Shown in pieces: positions 1,615 through 47,193 of a DNA stretch of 64,000 bases. Position numbers and translations under genes: made by a program. Under the pieces are notes generated by a model. The model was given only the letters and a program-made list of their open reading frames with translations. It had not been told where the DNA came from and searched no databases. Numbering within the stretch: position 1 is the first letter of the stretch; every line of letters begins with the position of its first letter. The DNA lies in contig NC_087251.1 of NCBI RefSeq assembly GCF_037042905.1, positions 2,048,001 to 2,112,000 of the forward strand, read 5' to 3'. Source of the DNA: Lytechinus pictus (lineage: Eukaryota).

Positions 1615-2766
1615 TATTTCAAATGACAGTTGGAAATTATAATTTTATTTCATTTATTGGTTTTTGCAACATTTTTCATAACAAAACTCTGGACAAGAAA
1701 ATACATATCTGAAATTTGACATCAAGATAATGAACAATAGTTTTGTATATCAATCATCAAATATATCTTACATAAATGAAAAATATTAAGTGGTATTTTC
1801 TGTTACACAATAAATAGGATGGTTGCAAGGGTCGTCACAAAAGCAAAGCTTGAAAACGTAACAGCCCACGAAAATAGCCAAAATAATTAATATCTATTGT
1901 CATTAAACGTGCAAGTGCATGAGGGACGGGGGGGGGGGGGGGTGGGCAAGGGTGGGCATGCTTGGTCCTTAGCATGGAATTTTAGAAAATAACACGTTTT
2001 GTTGTTTGATTTTTAATTTATACATGTTCTAGATAAAAGTCAATGTCTAATTAAAATAATGATAACAATGGTAATGATTTTTTTGTTGTTAGGTATTGGT
2101 TTAATTGCAATTCTTTTATAGTTCGTTTAAAGGAATAAAATGATCTTGTCAGCTTGAGTGAATCTAGCAATGCATTCCAAATATCAGGTCCATGATGTCT
2201 TAGTGTTTTATGTGCAAATAGTGTCCTGTGATTGTTTAAGTGAATATTATTGCATGTTCTTGTTGGATATGAGTGTAAATTGTTATTATAAGAAAATAAA
2301 TCCGTGAATACTGGAGGAAGCATGTCATAATTATATCTATACATAAACAGTGCTATTTGTAAAGTATTAATATCATTTATCTTAAATATTTTCAGACGAT
2401 AAAAGAGAGGGTCTGTATGTGAAAGATATGCAGATTTTGAACAAATTCTAACCGCTTTCTTTTGCAATAAAAGTATATGATTCAGCCTTGTCTTGCAGCT
2501 ATTCCCCCAAATGAGGTTACAGTAGTGAATATATGGTAAAATCAATGTATTATATATCATAACAAGAGATTTCTCTGGTAAGATTTGCTTTAGTCTACAT
2601 AGTATTCCAATTCCTTTAGCTACAGAGGAAGACACGTTGCTTATGTGCGGAGTCCATGATAAATGCTTGTCTATTGTGATACCAAGGAATGTTACGTATT
2701 CTTTTTTATCTAAAGGCACATTATCAATTTTTGTGTAAAATCTTGTGTAAAATTTTCATTTCTATG

Positions 2767-4177
2767 ATATGTATTGTAATGTCACCCACGATAATTGTGC
2801 AATAATTAAATATGCCGATGACACGGTCATCACTGGTTTCATCCTAGGAGACAGTAGGTCATATTTTAGGGAAGTTGATCAATTTGTAAACTGGTGTGAT
2901 CAACATCACCTAGTTCTTAACGTAAACAAGACTAAGGAAATGGTATTTGATTTTCGTCGTTCTTCTCAACCCCATGAACCATTACTTATTCACGATGAAA
3001 TGATTGAACAAGTTTCTGAATTTAAGTACCTTGGAACCACTATTGATGATAAACTGAATTGGAACAAGAACTCACAAATTGTAGCAGGCAAGGCATGTCA
3101 AAGGTTACACTTTTTGAGGAAACTCAAGGAGTTTCGTGTGGATAATAAGATCTTGGTTCTTTTCTACCAATCTCTTATTCAGAGTATCCTCACTTTCAAT
3201 TTTTTGTGCATTTTTGGTAATCTCTCAAATAAAAATCTGAAAAAAATCGAAAGACCAAGGAAAATCGCACAGAGACTGATTCACTCGGATCTTCCCCCCA
3301 TTAGTACTTTGTATGAAAAACGTGTGTTACTAAAAATACATACAATCATGAATGATTCATCGCATCCATTGCACAGTTTCTTTGGATTCAACCGCTCAGG
3401 CATTCGCCTCCGTGCACCCAAGAGTAACCGTTCACGATTTAGACAATCGTTTGTACCCAATGCTATTCATATGTACAATGACAAAGTTAAACGCTGAAGC
3501 TTTTGTAATCACGCATGTCAGCATTCAATCCTTGACAACGTTTTTGCCTGCCTACCCTTTATTATCATTATTTTAAGTAATTCAATTCAATTCGAACGCA
3601 CTTGCAATCGATCCCCAGCCCATTCTTGCCTCTGTCCTTCCCAGCTTGTTATGCACTCCAAAGTCGGTTTTTAATGTGTTCTTTTTTATTATGTAATTAC
3701 TTTTAACCTAATATAAAGCTGAAAATCCTTGCTTCAATTTGTAATACCTAATTATCATTCCGTTTAAGCTTTTTTGCTTTTTTGTTTCTCTCCCTCTCTA
3801 CCTCTCTCTGTCTCTCTGCTATGATTTCCCTCTATCTTCTTCGCTCACTTTCTTTCTCCACTGTGTCCACCTTTGTTTCTATCCAACTTATTCTTTCTCT
3901 TCTTGCTTGCATGGTCTTTTCCATCTATCTCTTAGTTAACTCTCAGCCGTTTCTCACTCTTTGTCTTTAATGGGTAAATTATTTGACATTTCCCTTCTAT
4001 GTTGTATTGCAATATCTGTTTGAATTGTTTATGTATATTTTCTTTCAATATATTCGCCCAATGTAGATGTCGTTGTGTTTGTATACTTTATATCATTTGT
4101 ATGTACAGCCAGTGGAGGCCAAATTTCTATGTATTTTACCATGGATCAATAATAAATGAATCTGAATCTGAATCTGA
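2767..4177 (+). mobile_element. 5'-truncated CR1-group LINE (L2/Rex-Babar-like) nested in antisense inside the older LINE
   Basis: Uninterrupted 242-aa ORF 2769-3497 (KYADD, LNVNKTKEM, FKYLG, QRLHFLRKL), about 660 bp 3' UTR, AATAAA at 4151 and a (TCTGAA)n tail. The host RT frame resumes on both sides. Confidence 0.92.
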
Positions 4178-5340: not shown

Positions 5341-7143
5341 TTACTTAGAATAATAATCTTTTTTGGATGAGCGGATTACACTTTTATACTTCTTGAAGCT
5401 TTGTTCAGACGGTTTAGAAATATACGATTTATAAAGTTTATTGCGTTTTTTAATTGAACGTATAATTCCTCGAGTGATCAATGGGTTTCTTTTATCATTT
5501 TTGCGTTGTTTTCTTTGAACAAGTGGTATATTTTTATTATAATAATGAGTTAGTTTGTCTATAAAATATTTGTAAGCTCTATTAACATCATGTTGAACCA
5601 TAATTTCATGCCATTCTTCTCTTTCTAAGTCTTCAATTAAAGCCGAAATAGTATTCAAGTTTTCTTTTCTATATTTTCTTTTATTCTGCTTTTTATTATC
5701 ATTAAACTTCAGAAGTGGAGAAATAAAAAATATTGGTAAGTGATCCGTAATATCATAAGTAAAAACACCATTATGATTATTATCATTAAAAGAATTGGAA
5801 AATATGTTATCAATTATTGTCGCTGACATTGGAGTTATCCTAGTAGGTACATTTATACATGGATAAAAATCATATGAAAATAGTGTTAAAAAATGTATTT
5901 ATGTTATTATCACTGCCATCATGATTTCCGATTAAATGTGACGTGCTTTGTATATGATTTGACAAGTCAATATTGAAATTGCCCATTATGCAAATATGTT
6001 TATTTTCGCGTGAAATTTTATCCAATTCACTATCTAAGTTTTCAAGAAAGTTGTTAACATTGCTACCTGGGGGTCTGTATAAAGTTCCTATGATTACATT
6101 TTTTCTAAATTTAATATATATTTCAATGAATAAACTTTCTATATCTTCAAAATGAATATCTGTTCTAAGTTTATATTTGATATTTGAATTAATATACATT
6201 GCCACCCCTCCTCCTCTTCCTTTCCTCCTATCAATGTGTATTATGTGATAATTTGGTAAATTATAGATATTTGGAGAATTTGACTTCAGCCAGGTTTCCG
6301 AAATACCAATGACTGAAAAAGAAAAATTGTCTAGAGAGGTTAAAAAAGTTTCGACAGAGTCAAAGTTTTTGCAGATACTTCTGGAATTGAAATGTAGTAA
6401 ACTTGAGTTATTATAAACATCAACATTGACATCGTTATTGTCCTTTAATTCAAAGGCTGATATGAATTCCTGTGAAGTATAATATTTGCAATTTTTTACA
6501 TTATATCATATTTGAAAAGGTATGAAGGTTAAGATAAACGAATAAATGCATACATTCAGGGTTTCAGAAAAAAATGACAGTACATTGGCCAATGTTTAAA
6601 ATATTAAGCATTTTACACAATCGAATAACACATTTCAATGAATGTTAGAATGCATAGTTTACTGTTATGTGAATATTATGACCTTAAAAAATCCTCAATA
6701 TTACATCTGTACTGCAACACGGACCCTACAGTCATGTGCACTTTGAGATGTCTGTTATATTTCATTGAATAGCTAGATGGCATGAATTCATGTTTGTGGT
6801 ATGGTGAACTATACTTCACACTGTTGAAATACATTTCTTTGTCTGGGTTTGGTTCAGGTTGTGTATTCAGTGCATGGGGGTATCAAGGATTTCATCAGAG
6901 GGGGAGACTGAGGGTAGCAGAATATTTGATTCGGATTTTTTTTTTCTTCTTGGACAACCCCAATAGCATTGAAAGGAACCGCCCAAATTATGGCATCAGT
7001 CACACCCAAATAGAACAATTCTATTTTTTAAAGACGAACAAAAAAAATGGACTTATATAAAGAGACCTAAAGAGACCTCAACAATATTTTTTCCTTGGTC
7101 ATCCCAAAAAGGTGACAAAGAACTTCGCTTTTTAATGCACCGG

Positions 7144-10919: not shown

Positions 10920-13620
10920 TCAATGACGAAGGGATTGTAGAGGTCTTTAGAAAAGAGGTTCGGGCGTTTGAGAGTGAACACGCCGAACCCGGTAGAAAGT
11001 GATGGGTATTTCGAAAGGGCTATCCAAACCACGTGGACGCCAGGACCATAAACGGACAAGTCTTGACAGCAATCTTATCAAGCTTTAAACTTGGAAGTCT
11101 TACCATAACAAAGCCAAACACAGACTGTTGGCTCGAACGTCTATGGTTTGTTATATATTTTGAACATTTTAAGGTAAGATTTAACCGACTTGAAGAAGGA
11201 GAATGGTATATTTCATCAAAGAAGGTCAGGAGTAGTCAAAGAAAACCCAAAAGAGCAGGGATTAGCACTATTAATGAATCGTCTGTAAAGCAACAAGAGC
11301 TGACCATTCTCTCAGAAGGAATGCAATCGAATGTAGTCAAAATTAAGATCAAAAGGCAAAATTTATAAACGAAAATGTTGGGCAAATGCAGAAGATAGAA
11401 AGAGGAAAAAATAATTTAAAGATAGTGTGCAAAAACCAACAACAAGCAGAAAAGTTGAAGTCAATGACTGAGTTTACAGGAATAGCAATCAGCGCAGATT
11501 GGTGCAAACCATATAAGAAAAGAAAAGGGGTTATTAAGGTAAGTAATGATATTGAAGATGAAGAATCATTAGAGATATTGAAGAAGGACAACGTCATATG
11601 AGTCAAACGGTTCAAGAAAAGAATCGACGGGGAGTTGAAAAACACCCCGTCGGTTCTTTTGACTTTTGAGAGAAGAGAAGTGCCAAAAGAACTTTATTTT
11701 GCATAATTATGAACGTTATGAAGTACTTGACTATGTTCCTCCGCCACCGAGATGCTTCAAATGCGAAATGTTCGGACACGTGGCAGATAGTTGCAAAAAC
11801 AATGGGGGTTGTGTGCGTTGTGGAGAGGGTCTTATAGTACAATGATTGTCCAAACAAGGAGGCTGTTCACACCGCAAGGGGGGACCCGTGGGCGGACCGT
11901 GGATCGCGCTATCGTAGCGCGATCCACGGTCCGCCCATTGGCATTCGCCGGATTCACACCGCAGTGAGATAGCGCGGTCTATCGTAGCACCCCCTTTTTT
12001 GAGAGGTCCTGTTGCCATGACGCATTACTTACTATATTTCTATTTTCACGATGTTCCGACGCGTTTTACTCCATAAAATTAGGAGTGTTGAGTTGTACCG
12101 ATTCAGATTCAGATCGCACCAAAATAGAATGAGTATAAAATTCCCCGCGTGTAGATGACTTCCGGCGTGCTATCGTAGCTCGGGTTCACACCGGGTTCAC
12201 ACCGCTATCTCTGCCGGTCTGAACAGGCTCTCTGAGCCTGTTCAGACCGGCAGAGATAGCGCGATCTAGCGCGCGCTAGATCGCGCTATCTCTGCGGTGT
12301 GGAAGGTACAACGTCGTTTCGGTCCGCCCAACAGCGAGCCACGGCGAGCCAAAACGGCGTGCCACTGGAGCACCTCTTGGGGGTGGTCCACGAGAGATAG
12401 CGCGGTCTAGCGCGCGCTAGATCGCGCTATCTCTGCCGGTGTGAACCCGAGCTACGATAGCACGCCGGAAATACAAGAGTCTAGAATCTAGATTAATCAA
12501 ATTAGAAATACATGCACAATGTATACAACGCCATGAAATAAACGTAGGCCGGCTAGCATAATAGGCACAGCGATATCGAGCTCTCAACTAACTAGTACGG
12601 GTTCGTAATAGCGCGCGAAATCTTTGACCGCTCTGACCTCATGACGTCACGCGTCATGGCAACAGGACCTCTAAAAAAAGGGGGTGCTACGATAGACCGC
12701 GCTATCTCACTGCGGTGTGAATCCGGCGAATGCCAATGGGCGGACCGTGGATCGCGCTACGATAGCGCGATCCACGGTCCGCCCACGGTCCCCCCTTGCG
12801 GTGTGAACAGCAGAGATAGCGCGATCTAGCGCGCGCTAGACCGCGCTATCTCTGCGGTGTGGAAGGTACAACGTCGTTTCGGTCCGCCCAACAGCGAGCC
12901 ACGGCGAGCCAAAACGGCGTGCCACTGGAGCACCTCTTGGGGGTGGTCCACGAGAGATAGCGCGGTCTAGCGCGCGCTAGATCGCGCTATCTCTGCCGGT
13001 GTGAACCCGAGCTACGATAGCACGCCGGAAGTCATCTACACGCGGGGAATTTTATACTCATTCTATTTTGTGGAGTAAAACGCGTCGGAACATCGTGAAA
13101 ATAGAAATATAGTAAGTAATGCGTCATGGCAACAGGACCTCTCAAAAAAGGGGGTGCTACGATAGACCGCGCTATCTCACTGCGGTGTGAATCCGGCGAA
13201 TGCCAATGGGCGGACCGTGGATCGCGCTACGATAGCGCGATCCACGGTCCCCCCTTGCGGTGTGAACAGCCTCTTGGACCACCCCCAAGAGGTGCTCCAG
13301 TGGCACGCCGTTTTGGCTCGCCGTGGCTCGCTGTTGGGCGGACCGAAACGACGTTGTACCTTCCACACCGCAGAGATAGCGCGATCTAGCGCGCGCTAGA
13401 TCGCGCTATCTCTGCCGGTCTGAACAGGCTCAAAGAGACTCGTAAATGCTGTAGGCGCAAACAAAACCACTCTGCAGCACATCTGGGATGAACATCATAT
13501 AAAGAGGCTGTTAAAATAAACACAATCAAGCAAACTGAAAACATTTCCTATGCAGAAGCTACAAAGAAATTCCACACCAAAGCAGAGTCCATTCCCGCGC
13601 AAGTGTCAGATCGATGACAC
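10920..13620 (+). mobile_element. Decayed non-LTR retrotransposon 5' region and ORF1 (gag-like zinc knuckles; I/Nimb/Jockey type), split by a MITE cluster
   Basis: Fragments KGVIK..., TPSVLLTF, YVPPPPRCFKCEMFGHVADSC..CVRCG before 11860 and CCRRKQNHSA...ISYAEATKK after 13430; contains stops and frameshifts. Boundaries approximate. Confidence 0.8.
11860..13430. mobile_element. Cluster of four whole or partial copies of a GC-rich palindromic MITE (Harbinger-like termini)
   Basis: Termini aggctgttcacacc / ggtctgaacaggct. Units at about 11860-12229(-), 12235-12811(+), 12812-13272(+) and 13273-13430(-). Confidence 0.75.
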
Positions 13621-13847
13621 TGATAATACAGCAAGACAATTTCATGAAGTTTCTTTTCCAGCTTGGCTAACCTGATGGGGGGGGGGGTCCTTTTGAAGGC
13701 CCCCTGACCACACCCACCACTAAGGACCAGCCAGACGCAAATTTCCTTCATATATTGCTCAAGCAAAACAATCTATGTTCAGGCCGTGAATAGCCATGCC
13801 AGTTCGGAGTTCCATTCTGCGCATGATCAGAAGAAGGCCATTTGTAA

Positions 13848-14353
13848 AGGTCAATTCCACCCCAGAAAAATGTTGATTTGAATAAATAGAGAAAAATCAA
13901 GGAAGGATTATGCTGAAAATTTCATCAAAATCGGATGTAAAATCAGACATTTTAAATTTTCGCTTATTTTTCACAAAACAGTAATATGCACAACTCAGTG
14001 ACATGCAAATGAGACAGTCGATGATGTCCCTCACTCACTACTTCTTTTGTTTTTATTGTTCGAATTATACAATATTTCTTTTTTTACAGATTTGACAATA
14101 GGGACCAACTTGATTGAACCATATAGAAATAAACAATGCTAATTGCACATGTTCAGGGAGGAATAAATCGTTGTTTCATACCAAAAGAAATAGTGAGTGA
14201 GTGATGTCATCAGTCTCCTCATTTGCATACCGACAAGGATGTGAATATAACTTTCTTATTTTACATCCGATTTTGATGAGATTTTCAGTGTTACGCTTGT
14301 TGGATTTTTCTCTTTTTATTCGAATCAACTTTTTGTTGGGGTGGACTTGTCCA
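13848..14353. mobile_element. TTAA-type MITE (Kolobok-like), family A
   Basis: aggtcaattccaccccag ... ttggggtggacttgtcca|TTAA; homologous to 388-954. Confidence 0.78.
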
Positions 14354-20211: not shown

Positions 20212-22868
20212 GGTTAGTGCTTCTTTGTTGAGATCCATTAACAAGAAAAACAAGCTGTATTATTCGTATAAAGTGCGTGGTACCGAATCTTCACGTAAAC
20301 GTTATGTAAATTATAAAAAAATACGCTTACTTCAGTCCTTCGTACTGCAAAGAAATCATATTATCGCACCCAATTTCAAGCAACAAGAAACGATATTAAG
20401 GGAACTTGGAAAGTGATTAAGAAAGTATTCAAGTCAAAGGAAAAGATCTCTCATGTAAAGAGTATTGAAATTAACAGTCATGTGGTGGAAGAAAGGAATA
20501 TTATAGCAGACAACTTTAACGATTACTTTTGCAGCATTGGTCCAAAAACGGGCAGTGCCACTTTCTCAGCAGACTTACAGAGATTTTATGAAAGAGCAAA
20601 ATAGTAAAAGTTTATTTTTCTTACCAGTAGTTCAGGAAGAACTGCTTACCATTGTGAAATCTCTTAAAAATGGGAAAAGTCCTGGTTATGATGGGGTTAC
20701 TAACAACTTAATTAAAGAAATTATCTTAGGAATTATTCAACCTCTACTTCATGTCTTCAATCTACCAATGTCATGTGGGAAAGTTCCTACTGACATGAAA
20801 ATTGCGAAGGTCGTACCCATTTTTAAGAAAGGAGACCCTCAATGCCTGAATAATTACAGACCTATTTCTCTATTGACTGCATTCTCAAATATTCTTGAGA
20901 AAGTGATCTATGTTAGAACTTTGAAATTTTTCAACAAGAGTAATATATTTTCTAAATTTCAGTTTGGCTTTCGCGAGAAACATACCACCACCCATGCCTT
21001 GCTACATTTTATTGATAAAGTATCACAATCCATAGACAAAAAGATGCATACAATTGGTATATTTCTTGATTATTCGAAAGCTTTTGACACAGTAGATCAT
21101 GATATTTTGATTGGCAAGTTATCACATTATGGTATCAGGGGTACAGCATTGGACTGGTTCAAGAGTTACTTAGCTGACAGGAAACAATTTGTCTCGATAC
21201 AGGATGCTGAGTCAGGTTTACAGAATGTCCCTTGTGGTGTTCCCCAGGGATCCCTCCTTGGTCCGTTATTATTTATTGTGTATATTAATGATTTTCACTA
21301 TTCCTCTGATATTTTATCGTTCATTTTATTTGCAGATGATTCAAGTTTGTATTATTCCCACAGAAATCCTGAGACCCTTTAAAAAACAGTTAATAGTGAA
21401 CTGAGGAAAGTCACTTTGTGGATTCAAGCAAATAAATTATCTCTAAATTTGCAGAAAACAAATTATATGCTCTTTAGCAACACGATTAGAGAAGTTCCAG
21501 GTGATGTTATATTTAATGATGTGTTAATAGATAGAGTAAAGACGACCAAATTTCTGGGGTTGCATATAGATGAAAAACTGATTTGGAAAACCCATATAAA
21601 TCATCTATGTAAGACATTATCAAAAAATAGTGGTGTAATATACAAATTGAAATCCCTTTTCTCTACTGATATTCTTTGTATGATGTATTCAACACTAATT
21701 CTCCCGTATCCCAATTACGGTGTTCTTGCATGGGGTAATTCTCTTAAAACCAATCTAGAAAGGGTGTACTTGATTCAGAAAAGAGTTTTAAGAATTGTTT
21801 GTAATGTTAACTATCGCTCGCATACTACCCCACTTTTTTATGAGCATAGAATTCTAAAATTACAAGATATCTATGATTTTCAACTTGGTACTCTAATGTA
21901 TGCATACAATGCAGGCATCATGCCACCAGCTCTGGTCACAATATTTATGAAAAATAGTGACATACATAACTATTATACACGAAATGCTTCTGCTTTCCAC
22001 TTACCCAAGTTACATACAAGTTTTGCTTTTAGGACAGTTGTAAATACAGGACCCAGGTTCTGGAACTCTCTCAATTCAAATATAAAAAAATCGGTAAGCA
22101 TTTATACTTGTCAGCGTGTACTTAAAGGTTATCTTCTTAATTGTTATTTGTGAGTTGATCTAGGTTAAGATATGCTTTTATATACTATGTTTTTTTTTTT
22201 TTTTTGGAGCCTATAAAAAACTGTATATAAGACTGGAGAATGTTATGATATATCAATATATATTTATCTTGTATCTTGTCTAACTGGTTTCTTCTGCAGA
22301 GGGTCAGCCCATGTTTTTTTTTCCTTTTGTATTCTTTTCATGTGTTTCTTTTACCTTTGTCATGTTTTTGTTTTTTACTTTACTATTATTATTATACATA
22401 CGATCTTCCTCTTTTTTTTCATGCCATGTTATCCATACTTATTTCTTCTTCCATCATTTATCACTTAATTATATCATATTGTTGTTAGTTTATTAGACTT
22501 CATAATTGTACATTCAAGCAATGTATTCTATTGTGTGTTTTTTGTCATTGATTAGATTTAGTTTGTCTTTTTTGTTTTATTGTTGTTGCATTTTTTAAGT
22601 TTTTTTGTTTCTTTTGTATTTCTAAAGATATTACATGTACACACTGAATACTATTCAGTCATGTACTTGAAACAAAGGAGACCCTAGCCTTACAAGCCTT
22701 GCTTTTTCAGGGGTTCTCCTTGTCTTTCTCTCAATACGTAATTAGTTATTTGCTGTGTTTTTTTTTTTCTACTGTAACAATGATTTATGGTTAATTGATT
22801 TTCATTTGTAGAATGTGAAATCACACTTGTAAGATAAAATGTATGTGCAGAAAGAAAGACGAATAAAT
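20212..22868 (+). mobile_element. 5'-truncated CR1/L2-group LINE (RT and long 3' UTR)
   Basis: ORFs 20537-21382 and 21416-22153 share one frame, separated by a single TAA. Motifs KSPGYDG, YRPISLL, QFGFR, DYSKAFD, GVPQGS, FADD; AATAAA near 22862. Confidence 0.93.
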
Positions 22869-38136: not shown

Positions 38137-38212
38137 CATGAATGTAAGCACGAGGACTGCGTTGCTTTCTCAGCCAATGAATGTAAGCACGAGGACTGCG
38201 TTGCTTTCTCAG
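38137..38212. repeat. Two-copy tandem duplication (about 39-bp period)
   Basis: atgaatgtaagcacgaggactgcgttgctttctcag occurs twice. Confidence 0.9.
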
Positions 38213-38319: not shown

Positions 38320-41300
38320 TTATTCTCGGCAAACAAAATGACAAAACAAAATAATATGCGATTATGTCGTGGCTTTATTCAATAGAGATGAACGCTTCCC
38401 GAAATTGGTGTCACAATCACATAAGTATAAAACATAGATATGAATACCTCTGATTAGAGACTTACATTCATGTATATCTGAAACCAACCGATAGCCTCGA
38501 ATTAGCTCCCCGAAGGGGGGTTAAACCCCCGGCTAGAAGGCCCCCCTCCCAGAAAATTCAACGTTAAATTTCGCGGCTGCTTTCCCACTGGTTCTCTGCT
38601 AGCCGGACAGGAATACCAGCACAGCTATGAACTACATTTATGAGCTACCGGCAAATCGGTGGATTACAGATGTCATACTTATATCATATAATATACATAT
38701 ATATATATATACCAGCCTTCCCGCATGAGAACTTGGGTGAGGCCTAAATTTCACGAAAAATATAAATGTATACAGAATACCAGCCTCCCCGCCTATGAGA
38801 TCAGGTGAGGCCTAAACTGAAAGTTCGAGCGTGACACCCTTACATAAAATATAAATGTATACAGAATACCAGCCTCCCCGCCTATGAGATCAGGTGAGGC
38901 CTAAACTGAAAGTTCGAGCGTGACACCCTTACATTCAAATCTACAATTGCGTTCTTAAAGTACTATGTAAAGTTATAAATAAATCCCCTTCGTCTAGGTA
39001 CCGAATGAGGACCCGATTCAATATGAAATATTAATCAACGTACATGGCATCAAAGTGGAAAATCTAATAACTAGAGGCGAAAATATAATTCACTGCTTTA
39101 AACACCTTGCAAAAGTGACCATTGTGGATTAAAGAACATATGCCATGACAATAATATGACAATACAATTCATGTGAATTACCAATATATAACGAACACCC
39201 AGCCACAAAAACGGGTAAGGGCGAAAACCCACCTGACCACAGTCCAAAATAGATCAGAAGGATAAAATTCCCTTACGGCCCACATTTCTAAATGCACGAC
39301 GATCTTGGTATTGTTTTGGTGTGCGACCAGGCAAACTGCCTCCGGATTTGAATTCGTGTTTCGTTATATAAATCAATATTATATTCATGTAAGTAAACTA
39401 ATTCAAATGTCCATTATCGACAGTTCTACATCCCGTTATTCCATCCTGAACGAGCTGTACATTCCAATAAAACACAAATCAACTCTGAATGATACGTATA
39501 GCGTATCTTCATTCTCGACCTTCTCCAACGCATGTGTTTAAACAATATTCCAACATCGTTTGACCCAAACGTACCGTTTACATGGGTGGTTGTTGGGGAG
39601 GAGGTGGGAAAATTACAAGCGAATATTTTGGACGTTCATCTCCGTTGAAAGCCAAGACTAAAATGAAGGATTTTTCGCGCCTTCACACCTAGGCGCGCGC
39701 GCCAAAACATGCGCGCTCCTTGCGCCCAGTACAAATTATTGTCATTGTGGGCATAAACCAAACAGGCTGGCGCGCCATTGTGACGTATCACCTCGTCAAC
39801 CGCGCCATTCCAAATTACAAATACCTTCATGACCTGGCATTGTTCACCGACTAATAAATCATTTTAAATCGCCGAGTCGTCTTTAAAATACATTATTCTC
39901 GGCAAACAAAATGACAAAACAAAATAATATGCGATTATGTCGTGGCTTTATTCAATAGAGATGAACGCTTCCCGAAATTGGTGTCACAATCACATAAGTA
40001 TAAAACATAGATATGAATACCTCTGATTAGAGACTTACATTCATGTATATCTGAAACCAACCGATAGCCTCGAATTAGCTCCCCGAAGGGGGGTTAAACC
40101 CCCGGCTAGAAGGCCCCCCTCCCAGAAAATTCAACGTTAAATTTCGCGGCTGCTTTCCCACTGGTTCTCTGCTAGCCGGACAGGAATACCAGCACAGCTA
40201 TGAACTACATTTATGAGCTACCGGCAAATCGGTGGATTACAGATGTCATACTTATATCATATAATATACATATATATATATATACCAGCCTTCCCGCATG
40301 AGAACTTGGGTGAGGCCTAAATTTCACGAAAAATATAAATGTATACAGAATACCAGCCTCCCCGCCTATGAGATCAGGTGAGGCCTAAACTGAAAGTTCG
40401 AGCGTGACACCCTTACATAAAATATAAATGTATACAGAATACCAGCCTCCCCGCCTATGAGATCAGGTGAGGCCTAAACTGAAAGTTCGAGCGTGACACC
40501 CTTACATTCAAATCTACAATTGCGTTCTTAAAGTACTATGTAAAGTTATAAATAAATCCCCTTCGTCTAGGTACCGAATGAGGACCCGATTCAATATGAA
40601 ATATTAATCAACGTACATGGCATCAAAGTGGAAAATCTAATAACTAGAGGCGAAAATATAATTCACTGCTTTAAACACCTTGCAAAAGTGACCATTGTGG
40701 ATTAAAGAACATATGCCATGCCAATATATCTTATGACAACAGTGTTTAGGCGGCATAATTTGACAAATTACCGCCAAACGAGAATATATTTTATATATAT
40801 GATCGGCCGCCAAACACTTCATTCATTTTTTAAGCCTTCGTTCATAATTTAGTCTAGTTTTGCATTAGCTGGCCAAGCTAAATCAGTTATCATGCATATG
40901 TAGTCAAGTAGGCCTCCAAGCCCTCCAATAATTTTAAATGAATTTAAAATATATCATCTTTGTATAACATCTTTGTACAGCCTTGACGTCGCTGTCTTAC
41001 ATGACACAGTTACCTGAAGGCTGGCATTCTTTGCCTCTAGCTATTCTGGCTGATATAAGAGTGATCATTTTATACGCAGTATACCTGTTTTCTATTCTTG
41101 ACCAACATACCAGCCCGTTTTAAACCAGCATGAAATGACAAATACTTTGCACCTGAATATTTCACTTATTGCATTCCAAAACCAGATAGAAAAATCCAAT
41201 TCAAGTATATGAACAAATATCCATCTCAAGTATAATGAGAGCATGAAAAACACTTCAATGTATTCAGCTGTTGGAAAAATCTCCCAATAGAAATACATTA

Positions 41301-44300
41301 AAACATAACCGTGTCAGAACTTCATTCACAATTAAAATCTGATTACCATGCGCAAAACTAAACAAAACATATGAAGGAAGACAAGATAATATGCCATTTG
41401 AAGTATCATGATTTTGATACAAATCTATTGCAATCTTCAAAATTGAAATTCATTGCATCACCAATTTTGATAAGTTATCAATGGTGGCTGAACGCCTTCA
41501 GCTTGACCATATAATTAACAAATACTGGCATCCCAACATTGCTAAACTAGCAATGCATGCCGCACTGAGGTACTGCCTCTGTCTTGTTGTCCCATTTGCC
41601 ATACATGTATAACAGTGCATAATCTAACCCTATGCACACAAATAATTCAATTGTGGACAATCGATCGATAAAAACCAAACACGGCATTTAGCTAGTCACT
41701 TCACACTTAATTCCAACAAATACGGTACATACCATACTTTATTTTATTCATTTTTTCATTATTAGTATTTATTTTTGATTTGATATACCGGTACTGTTCT
41801 GTTGGAACTGAGATAAGATAAAATCTGAAACTGAAAACTTGAGTAACATCCACAGAACAACCCCATATAACCAATGGGGTATAACCATGATAACTGAAGG
41901 CACTAAAACCAATTAGATGGCCGAAAGCCATCAGTTTGACCATATAGTTAACACATACTAGCATCCCAACATAGCTAAACCAACAATGCATGCCGCACTG
42001 AGGTACTGCCACTTTCTTGTTGTCCCATTTGCCATATAATTATAACAGTGCATGACTTAACTCCATGCACCCATATGATTCAATTGTGGACAATCGATCA
42101 ATTAAAATCCAACCACAGCATTTAGTTAGTCACCTCACTCTTAATGCCAACAAACAGACATCATACCATTCCTGAGTTATAATGGATTTTGAAAACTGTT
42201 CTGTTGGAAATGAGATAAAATAAAAACTGAAACTGAAAACTAGAGTAACATCCACAGAATAACCCCATATAACCAATAGAGTATAACCATGATAATTGAA
42301 GGCACTAAAACCAATTTGAACATGAACCCTTCCCGTCAGAACTACTCCGTTTATAGAGCTACACCCCTCATGCAGCTAAACTAAGAACCAGTGAACATAA
42401 ACTGGAATTTTACCGGGGATGTTTCATTTTTCGATTATGTATTCACATATCGACGTAAAACATGACTGACTTTTTGTCTTATCATCTTCACCACATCCAT
42501 GAAATAATTGTTTATTTCAAAATTAAAATAACATCCGACGAGTAGTCCTTCAAAGGATAATGAATAAAATTGAAGTGCCTTATACATTTATACATGCACA
42601 TATATATATATTTGTCCTGAACAATATGTTACATTCTTGTTGGCAAAAGCACAAAGAGGCAAAGGGCTTTCTTCATATGTTCAAGTTCCAATCCCTTCCA
42701 AGTGAACAATATGGAGGACCTCATAAAAAGTCTGAAAATGAAATCATAATGAACTCATCCTCATATCATGGACTCATTATTCAAGATAGCCCACTGTATC
42801 ATGATGTTTCAAACATGAAATTGTTTTCCCTGCTGCAATACTGTTCCTTGAAGGCTAAGATGTTTGTTCACCAGTTTTTTTTTACTGAAGAAAACCTCTA
42901 TTCCTTGGACTACGTATTATAAATCCACACCTGTCGGTAAATTATTAATATGAAGATGAAGACGTTGACCACTGCTCCAATTAGGGTAATTTCCGGCAGC
43001 ATAGTTCTCAGGCTATACCCAGTTCATTTCTATTTATTACAAGAGCGTATTAACGCCACAATTGACATCCATTACCATGGACTCTAGGCTATCTGGTCAG
43101 GAACTAGATCCAACCAAAGGGAAACTCTTTGGCAGCCAGACTTGGAGCGTTCTAGGTTATACTATAGTAGGTCCGATTGTCATCAAACTTTCCTGCCAGC
43201 CTACCTTGCCTCGCAGTAGTCAGCTTGAATCCATTTTATCCAAAGAGCCGGCTCTGCAAAAGAAAACAAGAAAAAAGCCTGGGCAGAACACCTAAATCTG
43301 TATCTCGTACCAAAACGGGTTTGTCCCTCTGCTTTCCCTTTCAATTTATCACTCAATTATGAGCTTAACACGAAAGGAGCAGCTTCCCGAAACATCTGAA
43401 AACCGCCTTCACGGAATAATCAGTAGTCCTGCTCCTTATGTTTCATTTTTAACTTTAATTTTCCAATTCCCTACAGTACAACCCCAACCAGCGATGCAAT
43501 ATCATCTGCATACATGTGCGTGTCGCAACTTAGAATATATTTCAAAACCAGATTAAGCTTCAAATAATCTGTTCCAAATGACTATAACTTGTATTATTTT
43601 GAAATATATTATCATTATTATATCAGTATTCAGTTTACCTCATATCACTGCAGAAATAATCGAGCCAAATTATTGCATCCAGCCCATTGGAAACATTTTC
43701 ATACTCAACGGGCCACCAACAAAATATTTCACACGCTGTACAATTCCAAAAAAGAAGATGTACTTTTGTAACCTGGTTCCTGATTGTGCAATCGGTAAAT
43801 TTCGTTTGATTGGCCAGTTTACCTACATGGCTCATTGCATTAAAGGCATCCGTATTGTGTCCCCCGAAAGCAAAGGGGGGGGGGGGTGACAGCATGGTGC
43901 ATCTACAAGATTTCAGACTTTCCCACACATGCCCATTTACATAATTACATAATTATCATTCTTTTTAAAATGATATTATCTCAGTTCAAATCATTGACCA
44001 GCCAAATAGGCCTATTTGATAAATACCTTGAACCATGAGGTGCAACTAGGTTCAATTGTGAAGCGCTTTGAGCAGTTCGACTTCGAGGTTGATATAAAGC
44101 GCTATATAACAACCAGTAATTAAATTCAATTCCAATAGGGCCTAAGCATTTCTACTTTTTTTTTTTTTTTACACAAAATAAAATCCACACAAAATCATCG
44201 CACATAAACGACTCCTATTACATAAAGGTTTCTTATTGGGAGGCCTATAATATTATAACAAACTGCTCGTTGACCACTTGACTTCAATCTAAACTAATTT

Positions 44301-47193
44301 GGGGATTCCAAGCTAGTTTGAAATTACATCCGACTATTATGTGCATGGTAAGTCCACTTTTACGTGTACCATGTTTCCTCGAAATGTGAAGCTCACATTT
44401 CCACCAAGCATCGGCATTCAATTCGTGCAAAGTGAATTCCAAAAACCAACCCGTTTCAAGGCGTAAATGTATAAACAGAACTGCTTGGTGCAAGGTGGAG
44501 GTATTTATATTTAATGTATAATCATTATCACACTGTATCATCAACATCAGCAATAAATAGTATTATTTTCAATACTTTAAACTCTAGTTATTTTCCTTTA
44601 AAAGACTGTAAGAAATCCATACAATCGCATGTCATAATGCTAAGCCACATCCGCTACTTTTCAAGTGACTGATTCAACAATAATATCATGCCCGTCGCAG
44701 TCTGTAGATGTTCATTTAAAAACTGAGTAGACGTATACATATCTAGTATAAGCTCTTCCACCACCGGTCTATCCACATAATTTTTAGACCGAGAACACAG
44801 CTCATGCTGGCCCATATCCAGAAAAAGTCACAGAGGTCAAATACTACTTTTATAGGCCTAACTGAACCAGCTGATTTATCCCCAAAACAGACATGTAAAA
44901 CCGCGTCTACTGTTAGTAGATCTAACGTTGGACTTAGCCTAATTTCCTCTGTGGTGTCACCATTAAATTGTAGTCCGAGTACCTGTACTAGTAGTAGACT
45001 ACTTGTAAATTTATAACAAAGACAAAGTGACATTTCTCACTCAGTTATTTATCAGCACCGAAAAAGTTCGAACTTTTTGCCAATCACTAGTAGACCCTCT
45101 GCTATTCTCACCATTTTTGCCAAAAACGGCGGCTTAAAATTAATCATGGTCTTAAATACATCTTAGCCTAGCCCATCACTAGGCCTAGAATAAGCTGTAA
45201 ATAATGGCTGCTAGAACCAATTTCATATCGGCCTCTATAGACTTCATTTTTCTTTGATTTTCCATCGAAAATATACATCGATTCTGGCCGAAGCTTTAGA
45301 ACCTCAATGTAGTCATATACTGAGGAGACTAACCCCAATTTCCAAACCACCGGCTGTGAAAATGTATTTACATCCATATTAACCACAGCCATGAACTAGG
45401 GCCTACACCTAATACGATACGGTAATTAACGTTAATAAAATTGTTGAACTCTTTTTAAAAATCACCATGACACACCTAGTGACCTAGTTCAGACACTAAA
45501 ACAAGTCGTCAAGTAGGAACAGGCCTAGCTAGGCCCGTGTTTGAATTATGACGACAACCCCTCCCTTTTCCATCATGATCGTATAAACCGCTTGGACCAA
45601 ATTAAAATTAATTCCAGGCCAAGTCCAAGCTGTGTCTTATTATGGCTTGACATATGACCTACATTCAAATCTAAACATTGTGTTGACAAGCCAAATAGCC
45701 CCCCCCCCCCCCCCCCCCATCGAACCATGTTTGCCTGACTACCTTAACTAGTCTTATGCCTGGCCTATGGTTGGTAATAGGATCTTCGCGTTCTAACGTG
45801 AAAACCGGGGGGGGGGGGTTGACGGGCCATGAAATTGAAATGAAAAGGACTCAGAGCCTATTAACTCCTGACCAATAAGAACATGATTTTGTTCGAAATC
45901 TAAAGCCAGGCCTAGACAGGCCTACCTGCTCGTTACAAAGCAGGCCTCTTCTACGATTCATTTAAGCCTAACTTCTACTCTAAGTTAGCACTACAGTATA
46001 CTAGGCTTAACGTTAGGCCTAACGTAGACCTACTAGGCCTAGGCCTAGGATACTATTTGACACTAAACCGTAGACCTAAATCTAGACTGAGTCTAGCCTA
46101 GATCTATTCCTGCTTCGTACTCACCGGATAGGCTAGGTCTTGTAGAGACTGAAACTTGTGAATTCTCTGGTAGTGGTACCGACCACGAGTACCCCGTTCC
46201 CCGTTCCGTCTGCCAATCCAGACCGTCGCCTCACCTCCCACAAGCAGACTCGAGAGCTCGGACTCAGGAGTAGGACCTCTGACTTCCGACAAACATTAAA
46301 TACTCATAGTCATAGTCATATCATTGGGTGATCATGATGAATCATAGTCGACTGTATCATGGCGTCGCCGACAATGTCTAACTTATGCATGATTTTGTTG
46401 CCAATGTAGGCCTAACTTAGGCCTAGTCTCTAACCTTGTGCCAGGGTCCGTGCTCAAATGTTTTGTTGGCTGGGTTGGCTGTTGCCAGTCCCAAATCCTG
46501 CACGTTAACGACAAGACTCTCAGACTCAATAAAAATTCCAGGCTTATGAAAAGCCGAATGAACTGAATTCCACCTAGCAGCTTGAGTCACATTCTCATCA
46601 TTCGTTCCCATCGTTGCTGAAACCAAACAGCTCAAAAGTTAGGGCCCAGCCGATCTGCTGACTGCTGTAATCGATACAGTCGCTCCCCGTCGTATTAAAC
46701 TTGGTTCAAAGTCAAAGCAGACGAGTTGTTGTTAATGTTAGGCCAGGCAAGAAATAGAGTATCATCAAGTAATTCGGACTGCATTTTCAGCTTCATAAGC
46801 GAAATTGTTGTGAGTCCCGATCGATGATGGTTTCAACAAAAAATTCTTGTAGATTTCGTTGCTCTTTGTAGATTACGACGTCTTCAAAAATGCAAGGTCG
46901 TAAGAAAAATTACAAGCGAATATTTTGGACGTTCATCTCCGTTGAAAGCCAAGACTAAAATGAAGGATTTTTCGCGCCTTCACACCTAGGCGCGCGCGCC
47001 AAAACATGCGCGCTCCTTGCGCCCAGTACAAATTATTGTCATTGTGGGCATAAACCAAACAGGCTGGCGCGCCATTGTGACGTATCACCTCGTCAACCGC
47101 GCCATTCCAAATTACAAATACCTTCATGACCTGGCATTGTTCACCGACTAATAAATCATTTTAAATCGCCGAGTCGTCTTTAAAATACATTAT
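38320..47193 (-). mobile_element. Non-autonomous split-direct-repeat element (PAT/Ngaro/TOC1-like tyrosine-recombinase retroelement architecture)
   Basis: Repeat B: 38320-39147 = 39893-40720 (828 bp). Repeat A: 39609-39896 = 46906-47193 (288 bp). Minus-strand order is A1-internal-B1-A2-spacer-B2, with TTAT shared at both ends and the B1/A2 junction. No gag, RT or YR ORF seen. Confidence 0.75.
41498..42316. repeat. Diverged tandem duplication, about 433-bp period, inside the split-repeat element
   Basis: gcatcccaaca..caatgcatgccgcactgaggtactgcc..ggcactaaaaccaatt occurs twice. Confidence 0.85.

Follow-up and report, generated by a model that had tools for sequence, protein, structure and literature searches.

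A young non-coding family with split direct repeats in the genome of Lytechinus pictus and its likeness to PAT, Ngaro and TOC1

TOC1, a green-algal element of 5.7 kb, is laid out as A1-interior-B1-A2-spacer-B2; the sizes of its repeats and spacer are reportedly to be found in work by Day and colleagues from 1988. SIRE, a short protist element, is the non-autonomous partner of VIPER. The replication and integration of split-direct-repeat retroelements are so far understood mostly in terms of a model. TOC1 has been called a non-autonomous DIRS retrotransposon (PMC9940879), VIPER has been associated with the short interspersed element SIRE in trypanosomatids (PMC7192593), and the Ngaro and PAT retroelements are described with an order of A1-[internal]-B1A2B2, no target duplication, solo derivatives, and identical repeat pairs in young copies (PMC8547959, PMC4157794, PMC8969392). 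Here we analyze an element of 8.9 kb from Lytechinus pictus (contig NC_087251.1) that occupies positions 38320–47193 of a 64-kb stretch of DNA, which we call the window and whose coordinates are used throughout. A first-pass annotation made from the sequence alone had proposed for this element a PAT/Ngaro-like arrangement of direct repeats.

Two pairs of direct repeats define the element. The 828-bp B repeat is present at 38320–39147 (B2, the outer copy) and at 39893–40720 (B1, the inner copy), and the 288-bp A repeat at 39609–39896 (A2, inner) and 46906–47193 (A1, outer). Exact extension gave 100% identity for both pairs, and the same pairs were recovered independently in a repeat search, so the identities and the TTAT overlap that had been judged by eye are exact. 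On the plus strand, the order is B2, a 461-bp spacer (39148–39608), A2, B1, a non-coding interior of 6185 bp (40721–46905) and A1; the minus strand reads A1-interior-B1-A2-spacer-B2. A2 and B1 overlap by a single TTAT core (39893–39896), and TTAT also stands at the two outer ends (38320–38323 and 47190–47193). The repeat layout of a split-direct-repeat element is therefore present: two direct-repeat pairs are ordered A1-internal-B1-A2-B2 and B1 abuts A2, with 461 bp of spacer between A2 and B2. The repeat search found no inverted repeats of 40 nt or more.

The interior of the copy contains a degenerate duplication of ∼430 bp (41485–42319). We considered whether the spacer might be a deleted interior, and rejected this; its best match to the interior (22 bits) equals that of shuffled controls. 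Because spacer and interior are unrelated, the short unit is not a deleted form of the long one. An AATAAA hexamer lies on the minus strand 54 nt before the outer end of B2, where the first-pass annotation had placed it, and another lies on the plus strand 38 nt before the end of A. Occurring on both strands, the hexamer does not fix the sense strand. An origin as a derivative of a long terminal repeat (LTR) retrotransposon, either a large retrotransposon derivative (LARD) or a terminal-repeat retrotransposon in miniature (TRIM), was also rejected, as B2 and A1, at the outer ends, are not related in sequence and the target is not duplicated, whereas a TG..CA pair and a duplication of 4–6 bp would be expected.

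To ask how often this layout recurs, we searched the genome (812 Mb, 368 contigs). With B as query, the best 40 of 142 candidates scored were all full-length at 99–100% identity, and with A, the best 40 of 138 were all 98–100% identical. Most of the A and B matches keep the spacing of the window copy (B–B ∼1.57 kb, A–A ∼7.3 kb). Pattern counts gave 123 B starts, 127 A ends and 47 internal A-TTAT-B junctions genome-wide, compared to 0 for each reversed-pattern control. The distance from junction to outer A is 6.6–7.4 kb in most copies, and the 60 fetched loci that were mapped show the same linked order, as the first-pass annotation had anticipated of copies elsewhere. At 45 of the 47 junction loci, the junction is followed by the long interior; one belongs, as its first junction, to a (B-sp-A)x2-B-int-A copy (C12:3045364), and another (C17:22813447) was left out of the order census. 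The permuted order B-int-A-B-sp-A was not seen in the census of 47 junctions. Flanking sequences are unrelated between loci. These data show that the 8.9-kb unit belongs to a mobile family that is young, non-coding and present in many copies, and in which the whole composite appears to be what moves. The young age that had been proposed for the copy is supported. Because the layout recurs at dozens of loci in the same genome, the structure in the window is far beyond chance.

Perfect repeats within 9 kb can come from mis-assembly, and this possibility had been raised at the outset. However, 46 loci with unrelated flanks, spread over more than 20 contigs, have the same structure, and it is covered by independent contigs from other runs. 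Among these, a contig of a second organism (X8) runs across spacer-A2-B1 and differs at 15 of 710 bases. The copy census and the second-organism contig together rule out the mis-assembly that had been feared, and we regard the chance that the structure is an assembly artefact or an immobile local segmental duplication as negligible.

Units of each kind also occur singly, B-int-A at a minimum of 9 loci (e.g. L011, L016 and L019) and B-sp-A at a minimum of 7 (e.g. L020), as counted partly from coordinates only. Such single units are what recombination between the repeats would leave. It had been considered that the 1.57-kb and 7.3-kb units might occur independently and never in the linked order; the first part holds at these loci, but the second does not, given the dozens of loci with the linked order.

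The 47 junction 33-mers are identical except for the base after the core, which is T in 24 and A in 23, and hence two subfamilies are marked. Three subfamily-2 copies (L064–L069) have the same layout, with repeats and spacer 94–95% and interior 68–85% like the window copy. Positions 38846–40418 align with subfamily 2 at 93.6–94.1%, and the spacer, ∼94% identical between subfamilies, is as well kept as A and B. In the interior, conservation between subfamilies is ∼84–85% beside B1 and ∼83% beside A1, and falls to its lowest (68–73%) midway. The B repeats of the two subfamilies differ by 26–29 substitutions and ∼107 indel columns. The latter include one 89-bp unit: two exact 89-bp tandem units are present in B at 38757–38934 (40330–40507 in B1), and subfamily 2 has one unit fewer in both B copies. 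The A repeats differ by 14–16 substitutions. All subfamily differences in A and B occur in both copies of the repeat.

Within a single copy of the element, by comparison, B1 and B2 differ by 0–6 substitutions, and A1 and A2 by none in three of four copies, the fourth being an older copy with ∼98% identity. Two subfamily-2 copies are 5 substitutions apart in A, yet A1 equals A2 in each. We also compared the B repeats of 14 subfamily-1 copies, which have 22 variable columns. Here, 26 minor-variant calls are found in both B1 and B2 of a copy and 6 of these are private to one copy; there are 12 singleton variants, and no B1- or B2-specific variant is common to several of the 14 copies. In A of subfamily 1, only singletons are seen, the outer core aside. 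Because B1 matches B2 and A1 matches A2 within copies despite the divergence of the subfamilies, and because copy-private variants are present in both B repeats, these comparisons speak for regeneration of the A and B pairs from one template per cycle, as is the case for LTRs. On this evidence the repeats, like LTRs, would be identical at insertion and diverge later. Movement of the composite as plain DNA would instead pass on position-specific differences. The apparent regeneration of the repeats in each cycle is the main new result of this work.

We then examined the insertion sites. Among insertions with unrelated flanks, the tetranucleotide on the B2 side is TTAT in 22 of 22, and that on the A1 side is TTAT in 14 of 20, TTAA in 4 and ATAT in 2. 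All six variant cores thus fall on one side (one-tailed hypergeometric p = 38760/5245786, ∼0.007, calculated by hand). The base before the insertion site, counted by eye, is A in 14 of 22 cases, T in 6 and C in 2; it is often part of CA, which resembles the end of A. For one copy, on contig C29, an empty site can be compared. The flank here is a tandem repeat with a period of ∼720 bp (L053, reverse complement 2275–3287), and the element sits in one unit. Two paralogous empty units beside it read ...AAACT TTAA AGGCG... and ...AAACT TCAA AGGCG..., and the filled site reads ...AAACT TTAT[element...ATACA]TTAA AGGCG.... This comparison, with a single TTAA in the first empty unit, bears out for one copy the short shared core that had been predicted. 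It follows that the target tetranucleotide is not duplicated, and that the TTAT on the B2 side is borne by the element while the tetranucleotide on the A1 side is the target's. In the window copy, the first four bases of B2 (38320–38323) are accordingly the invariant core, and the last four of A1 (47190–47193, here TTAT) are the target-derived position that varies among insertions. Taken jointly, the insertions with TTAA and those with ATAT locate the crossover at the 5' edge of the plus-strand TTAT. A core of this one-sided kind would fit one precise exchange of strands with an intermediate that is linear or single-stranded, and such intermediates have been reported for DIRS-1 (PMC7192593). 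It does not fit a symmetric double-strand exchange over a 4-bp overlap, because variants would then be expected at both ends.

The same observations bear on an alternative put forward in the first-pass annotation, namely two Crypton-like DNA elements of 1.57 kb and 7.3 kb inserted head to tail. In this reading the two, with common ends, would move as DNA circles by means of a tyrosine recombinase that acts on the TTAT core. The short direct repeat of similar sequence at the termini of all copies of the family, the constant TTAT, recalls what is described for Cryptons (PMC8969392), terminal inverted repeats of 40 nt or more are lacking, and both units are found alone at some loci. The genome also has candidate recombinase loci: a tyrosine-recombinase domain (PF00589) was detected in at least 83 places (among the best 98 of 200 candidates scored), and open frames of ∼330 amino acids (aa) are found at many of these. 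However, a composite circle with two identical junctions is expected to give both permutations, and only one is seen; I-I and II-I pairings of the units are absent; DNA-only movement does not homogenize B1 with B2 or A1 with A2; and the core varies at one end only. No recombinase gene was found in the element, and no linked partner was detected. With its poor fit to the fixed order and the co-evolving repeats, the Crypton-like pair is very unlikely.

The element shows no sign of coding capacity, in agreement with what had been noted before. None of its stop-to-stop frames exceeds 131 aa, and 0 of its 74 frames of 45 aa or more reach a Pfam cut-off. Nor is there any frame of at least 150 aa within the three subfamily-2 copies. 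At 23 of 23 subfamily-2 junction loci, a 2.6-kb piece of this subfamily's interior was found (81–100% identity), and since that interior showed no frame of such length in the three copies read, no coding version with these ends appears to be hidden among the junction-bearing copies examined. Two copies were left out of this check (C11:2496718–2508291, 10.1 kb, and C1:33988005–33998553, 9.0 kb). Three longer copies were considered as autonomous versions and rejected. Two of these, the subfamily-1 copies on C12 (10.7 kb) and C5 (14.8 kb), proved to be this very element carrying foreign insertions nested in it. The third, a subfamily-2 copy of 11 kb on C3, has an insert and no frame of 150 aa or more. 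The foreign element nested in the interior of the C5 copy (C5:17330234) is ∼7.6 kb long and holds an open frame of at least 732 aa (L062:7701–9899, minus strand), for which no Pfam match was obtained. The idea of a ribozyme or retrozyme was likewise dropped, there being no Rfam match at gathering score in the 64-kb window.

Two stranded RNA runs gave 142 and 160 reads on the element, a low level of RNA. The reads are mostly 95–99% alike and therefore come from diverged copies; they cover B, the spacer and A, with the interior uncovered. First mates map to the minus strand, which in the usual library type corresponds to plus-strand RNA. In 14 reads, another repeat is joined to the start of a subfamily-2-type B (at window position 39892). 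The 23-mer joined to B here belongs to a repeat with 105 copies and does not occur in the family loci and other sequences that were retrieved for the analysis. One caveat for the RNA sample is that run X1 may be DNA. The 105-copy repeat is arrayed at one place with an 842-bp period (e.g. C16:795501–797807), and its 23-mer resembles the end of A at ∼14 of 17 positions by eye. Over a low-complexity part of the interior (45698–45826), some RNA reads have strand-switch joints and loose ends with G- or C-runs; these are probably an artefact of library or mapping.

We consider the element to be a non-autonomous split-direct-repeat element of the PAT/Ngaro/TOC1 kind, with a probability of roughly 0.6. 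This membership is not proven and goes by behaviour: the layout, the absence of target duplication, the shared core and the regenerated repeats are all in place, and enzymes and a partner were not found. In the mechanism that we envisage, both A copies and both B copies would be rebuilt in each round from a single template. The simplest route would be reverse transcription of a sub-genomic RNA, with the internal B1/A2 junction supplying the missing ends, as has been proposed for tyrosine-recombinase retrotransposons. To insert the new DNA, a single precise crossover would then take place directly 5' of the plus-strand TTAT (3' of ATAA when read on the minus strand), at a WTAW target that tends to have A or CA before it. 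Such a crossover would leave no target duplication, with the B2-side TTAT coming from the element and the A1-side tetranucleotide from the target. The enzymes would be supplied in trans. Architecture, copy number and fixed order are observed, as are repeats that co-evolve, a core that varies on one side only and a single empty site; from these we infer the reverse transcription of an RNA, the type of recombinase and the sense strand.

Several points weigh against this assignment, beginning with the manner of integration. A simple double-strand exchange by a tyrosine recombinase over a 4-bp overlap should give variant cores at both ends rather than at one, and a circular intermediate, with its two identical B/A junctions, should give both permutations, of which only one is seen. 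In principle, gene conversion between close direct repeats could mimic regeneration, although it would have to be pervasive. The RNA evidence is not supportive either. In the usual library type, the plus-strand RNA is opposite to the canonical orientation, and the 14 joined reads suggest read-through; the RNA data show no RNA intermediate. Finally, no reverse transcriptase or tyrosine recombinase is recognizably linked to the ends of the element. It encodes neither reverse transcriptase/RNase H nor tyrosine recombinase, the hallmark of the DIRS order, and ends in common with an element that does were not found. A search of the whole genome for shared ends (B start, A end and junction patterns) returned only this family, and the inverted-repeat architecture of the junction occurs nowhere in the genome beyond the 47 family junctions. 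We compared enzyme loci by coordinates with 100 of the 123 B starts and 100 of the 127 A ends; none of the at least 83 PF00589 places lies inside or within ∼50 kb of these listed ends. The autonomous partner with the same ends that had been postulated was thus not found, all 47 junctions being those of this family.

The PF00589 places include several groups with identical scores and frames of ∼330 aa, and one frame of 952 aa (C6:21258884). To judge from these frames and scores, several DIRS/Ngaro/Crypton-type families seem to be intact in this genome.

The ends of the element raise a different possibility. An imperfect inverted repeat spans the A2/B1 junction (39859–39914), with arms TCATTTT..GCCGAG on the A side and CTCGGC..AAAATGA on the B side that bracket the TTAT core, which lies in the loop. 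The arms match at 13 of 18 positions, which form separate blocks of 7 and 6 bp, and either strand of the junction folds into a hairpin (z −2.0 and −2.2). Both subfamilies carry identical arms, leaving no covariation. The same arms are found near both outer ends of the element; on the plus strand, they lie 5 nt (5' arm) and 16 nt (3' arm) from the respective end. Given this, the composite might be two non-autonomous HINE-like (Helitron2/Helentron) elements arranged head to tail, whose plus-strand units start TTATTCTCGG and end ATACA, and which are mobilized jointly when a Rep/helicase acting in trans reads through the first 3' end. The imperfect subterminal inverted repeat is reminiscent of this kind, and so are the internal tandem repeats and the 6-bp TTTAAA, the sole palindrome in the 3' tail. 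The plus-strand element begins with T, T follows the insertion in 18 of 20 cases and there is no duplication, in keeping with published descriptions of such elements (PMC8969392, PMC4067079). The inverted repeat, the tandem repeats and this mode of insertion speak for a rolling-circle pair and at the same time against a PAT/Ngaro/TOC1 affiliation. A one-sided precise joint is also what an HUH nuclease is expected to produce. Moreover, a Helitron_like_N domain (PF14214) was detected in at least 35 places, with open frames of up to 3525 aa; 23 of these have near-identical scores and open frames, and the enzymes are, by this token, probably active.

Other observations are hard to reconcile with two rolling-circle elements. 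Rolling-circle copying of a pair cannot hold B1 equal to B2 and A1 equal to A2 in a family that diverges by 5%. One would also expect single units to be more numerous than the pair and to occur in every order, but we see 47 junctions in one order versus about 16 single units. The inverted repeat, at 13 of 18 positions in two blocks, differs from the contiguous 12–15 bp subterminal inverted repeat described for these elements, and the left flank is always TTAT, which is more than a single T. Published HINEs share >95% identical ends with a Helentron, whereas none of the at least 35 Helitron_like_N places lies within 100 kb of the listed family ends (in lists incomplete from contigs C16–C17 on). 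A Helentron-like pair is the main and a serious rival with regard to end features, but it does not explain why the repeats co-evolve, why the order is fixed or why single units are scarce, and as an account of the composite we consider it unlikely. The Helitron_like_N places are of interest in their own right. At least 23 have near-identical scores and uninterrupted frames of 2190–3525 aa (e.g. C11:24753501, C12:7852218–8276968 and C10:41325–400518), with several clustered within a few hundred kb, and from their open frames they look like a very young family of giant Helitron/Helentron-like elements.

It is conceivable that the family has no autonomous relative with the same ends at all. It would then be a long-lived non-coding element with several sublineages and a 6.2-kb interior that is 70–97% alike, which parasitizes the enzymes of an unrelated element and is still rebuilding its repeats and making one-sided crossovers at WTAW. 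The enzymes might be drawn from a tyrosine-recombinase retroelement with different ends, or even from active giant Helitron-like elements. If true, this would be a mode of trans-mobilization or a replication scheme not yet described; we think it quite unlikely.

Whichever enzymes are involved, the family provides a natural data set that constrains the model for split-direct-repeat retroelements: dozens of very young copies, two diverged subfamilies and one empty site. By these data, both repeat pairs are fully homogenized in each cycle, a single permutation is ever integrated, and the crossover is precise and one-sided, for which an intermediate that is linear or single-stranded is a better fit than symmetric exchange of a double-stranded circle. 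For annotation, the 1.57-kb and 7.3-kb parts should be grouped in a single family that has solo derivatives, rather than listed as two transposons.

Elsewhere in the window, fragments of the long interspersed element (LINE) type were detected at 2751–3497 (RVT_1, E 1.5e-25), 5870–6505 (Exo_endo_phos, E 1.9e-8) and 20507–21382 (RVT_1 together with ALKBH8_N). The GC content of positions 12001–14000 is 51%, compared to ∼35% around them. An exact 39-bp tandem repeat (1.9 copies) lies at 38138–38212, ∼110 bp to the left of the element.

With regard to described systems, HINE/DINE-1 elements and Helentrons resemble the family in that they are non-coding, carry subterminal inverted repeats, central tandem repeats and a short 3' palindrome, and insert at T without causing a duplication (PMC4067079). 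HINEs, however, are single units with ends in common with a Rep/helicase element, and paired co-evolving A and B repeats or a fixed order of two units are not among the HINE features given in the cited parts of that source. DIRS1-like elements are similar in that integration has been proposed to proceed via a short junction sequence and an identical genomic sequence with no duplication, and in their AT-rich ends, reported as NTT, mostly ATT (PMC3266345). They have inverted terminal repeats and an internal complementary region, in contrast to the split direct repeats found here.

The Ngaro and PAT elements are closer, sharing the A1-[internal]-B1A2B2 order, the absence of target duplication, the solo derivatives and the identity of the repeat pairs in young copies; the single units seen here match the solo AB repeats described for Ngaro (PMC8547959). 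Ngaro and PAT encode Gag, reverse transcriptase/RNase H and a tyrosine recombinase (and PAT also a methyltransferase), whereas this family encodes nothing, and it differs further in the spacer between A2 and B2 and in a shared sequence of 4 nt as opposed to 3 nt. As a candidate non-autonomous partner of a split-direct-repeat tyrosine-recombinase retroelement, it would be comparable to SIRE in its relation to VIPER, and it would be one of few non-autonomous members of the split-direct-repeat kind.

Another close parallel is TOC1 of Chlamydomonas reinhardtii. The host differs, an 812-Mb genome with LINE fragments as compared to that of a green alga, and so does the setting: TOC1 has coding TOC3 relatives in its genome, while the element described here is 8.9 kb long, has a spacer of 461 bp and comes with no coding relative that was found to have these ends. 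TOC1 and this family nevertheless have in common that they are non-coding, multi-copy and mobile, and that both are built in the order A1-interior-B1-A2-short spacer-B2.

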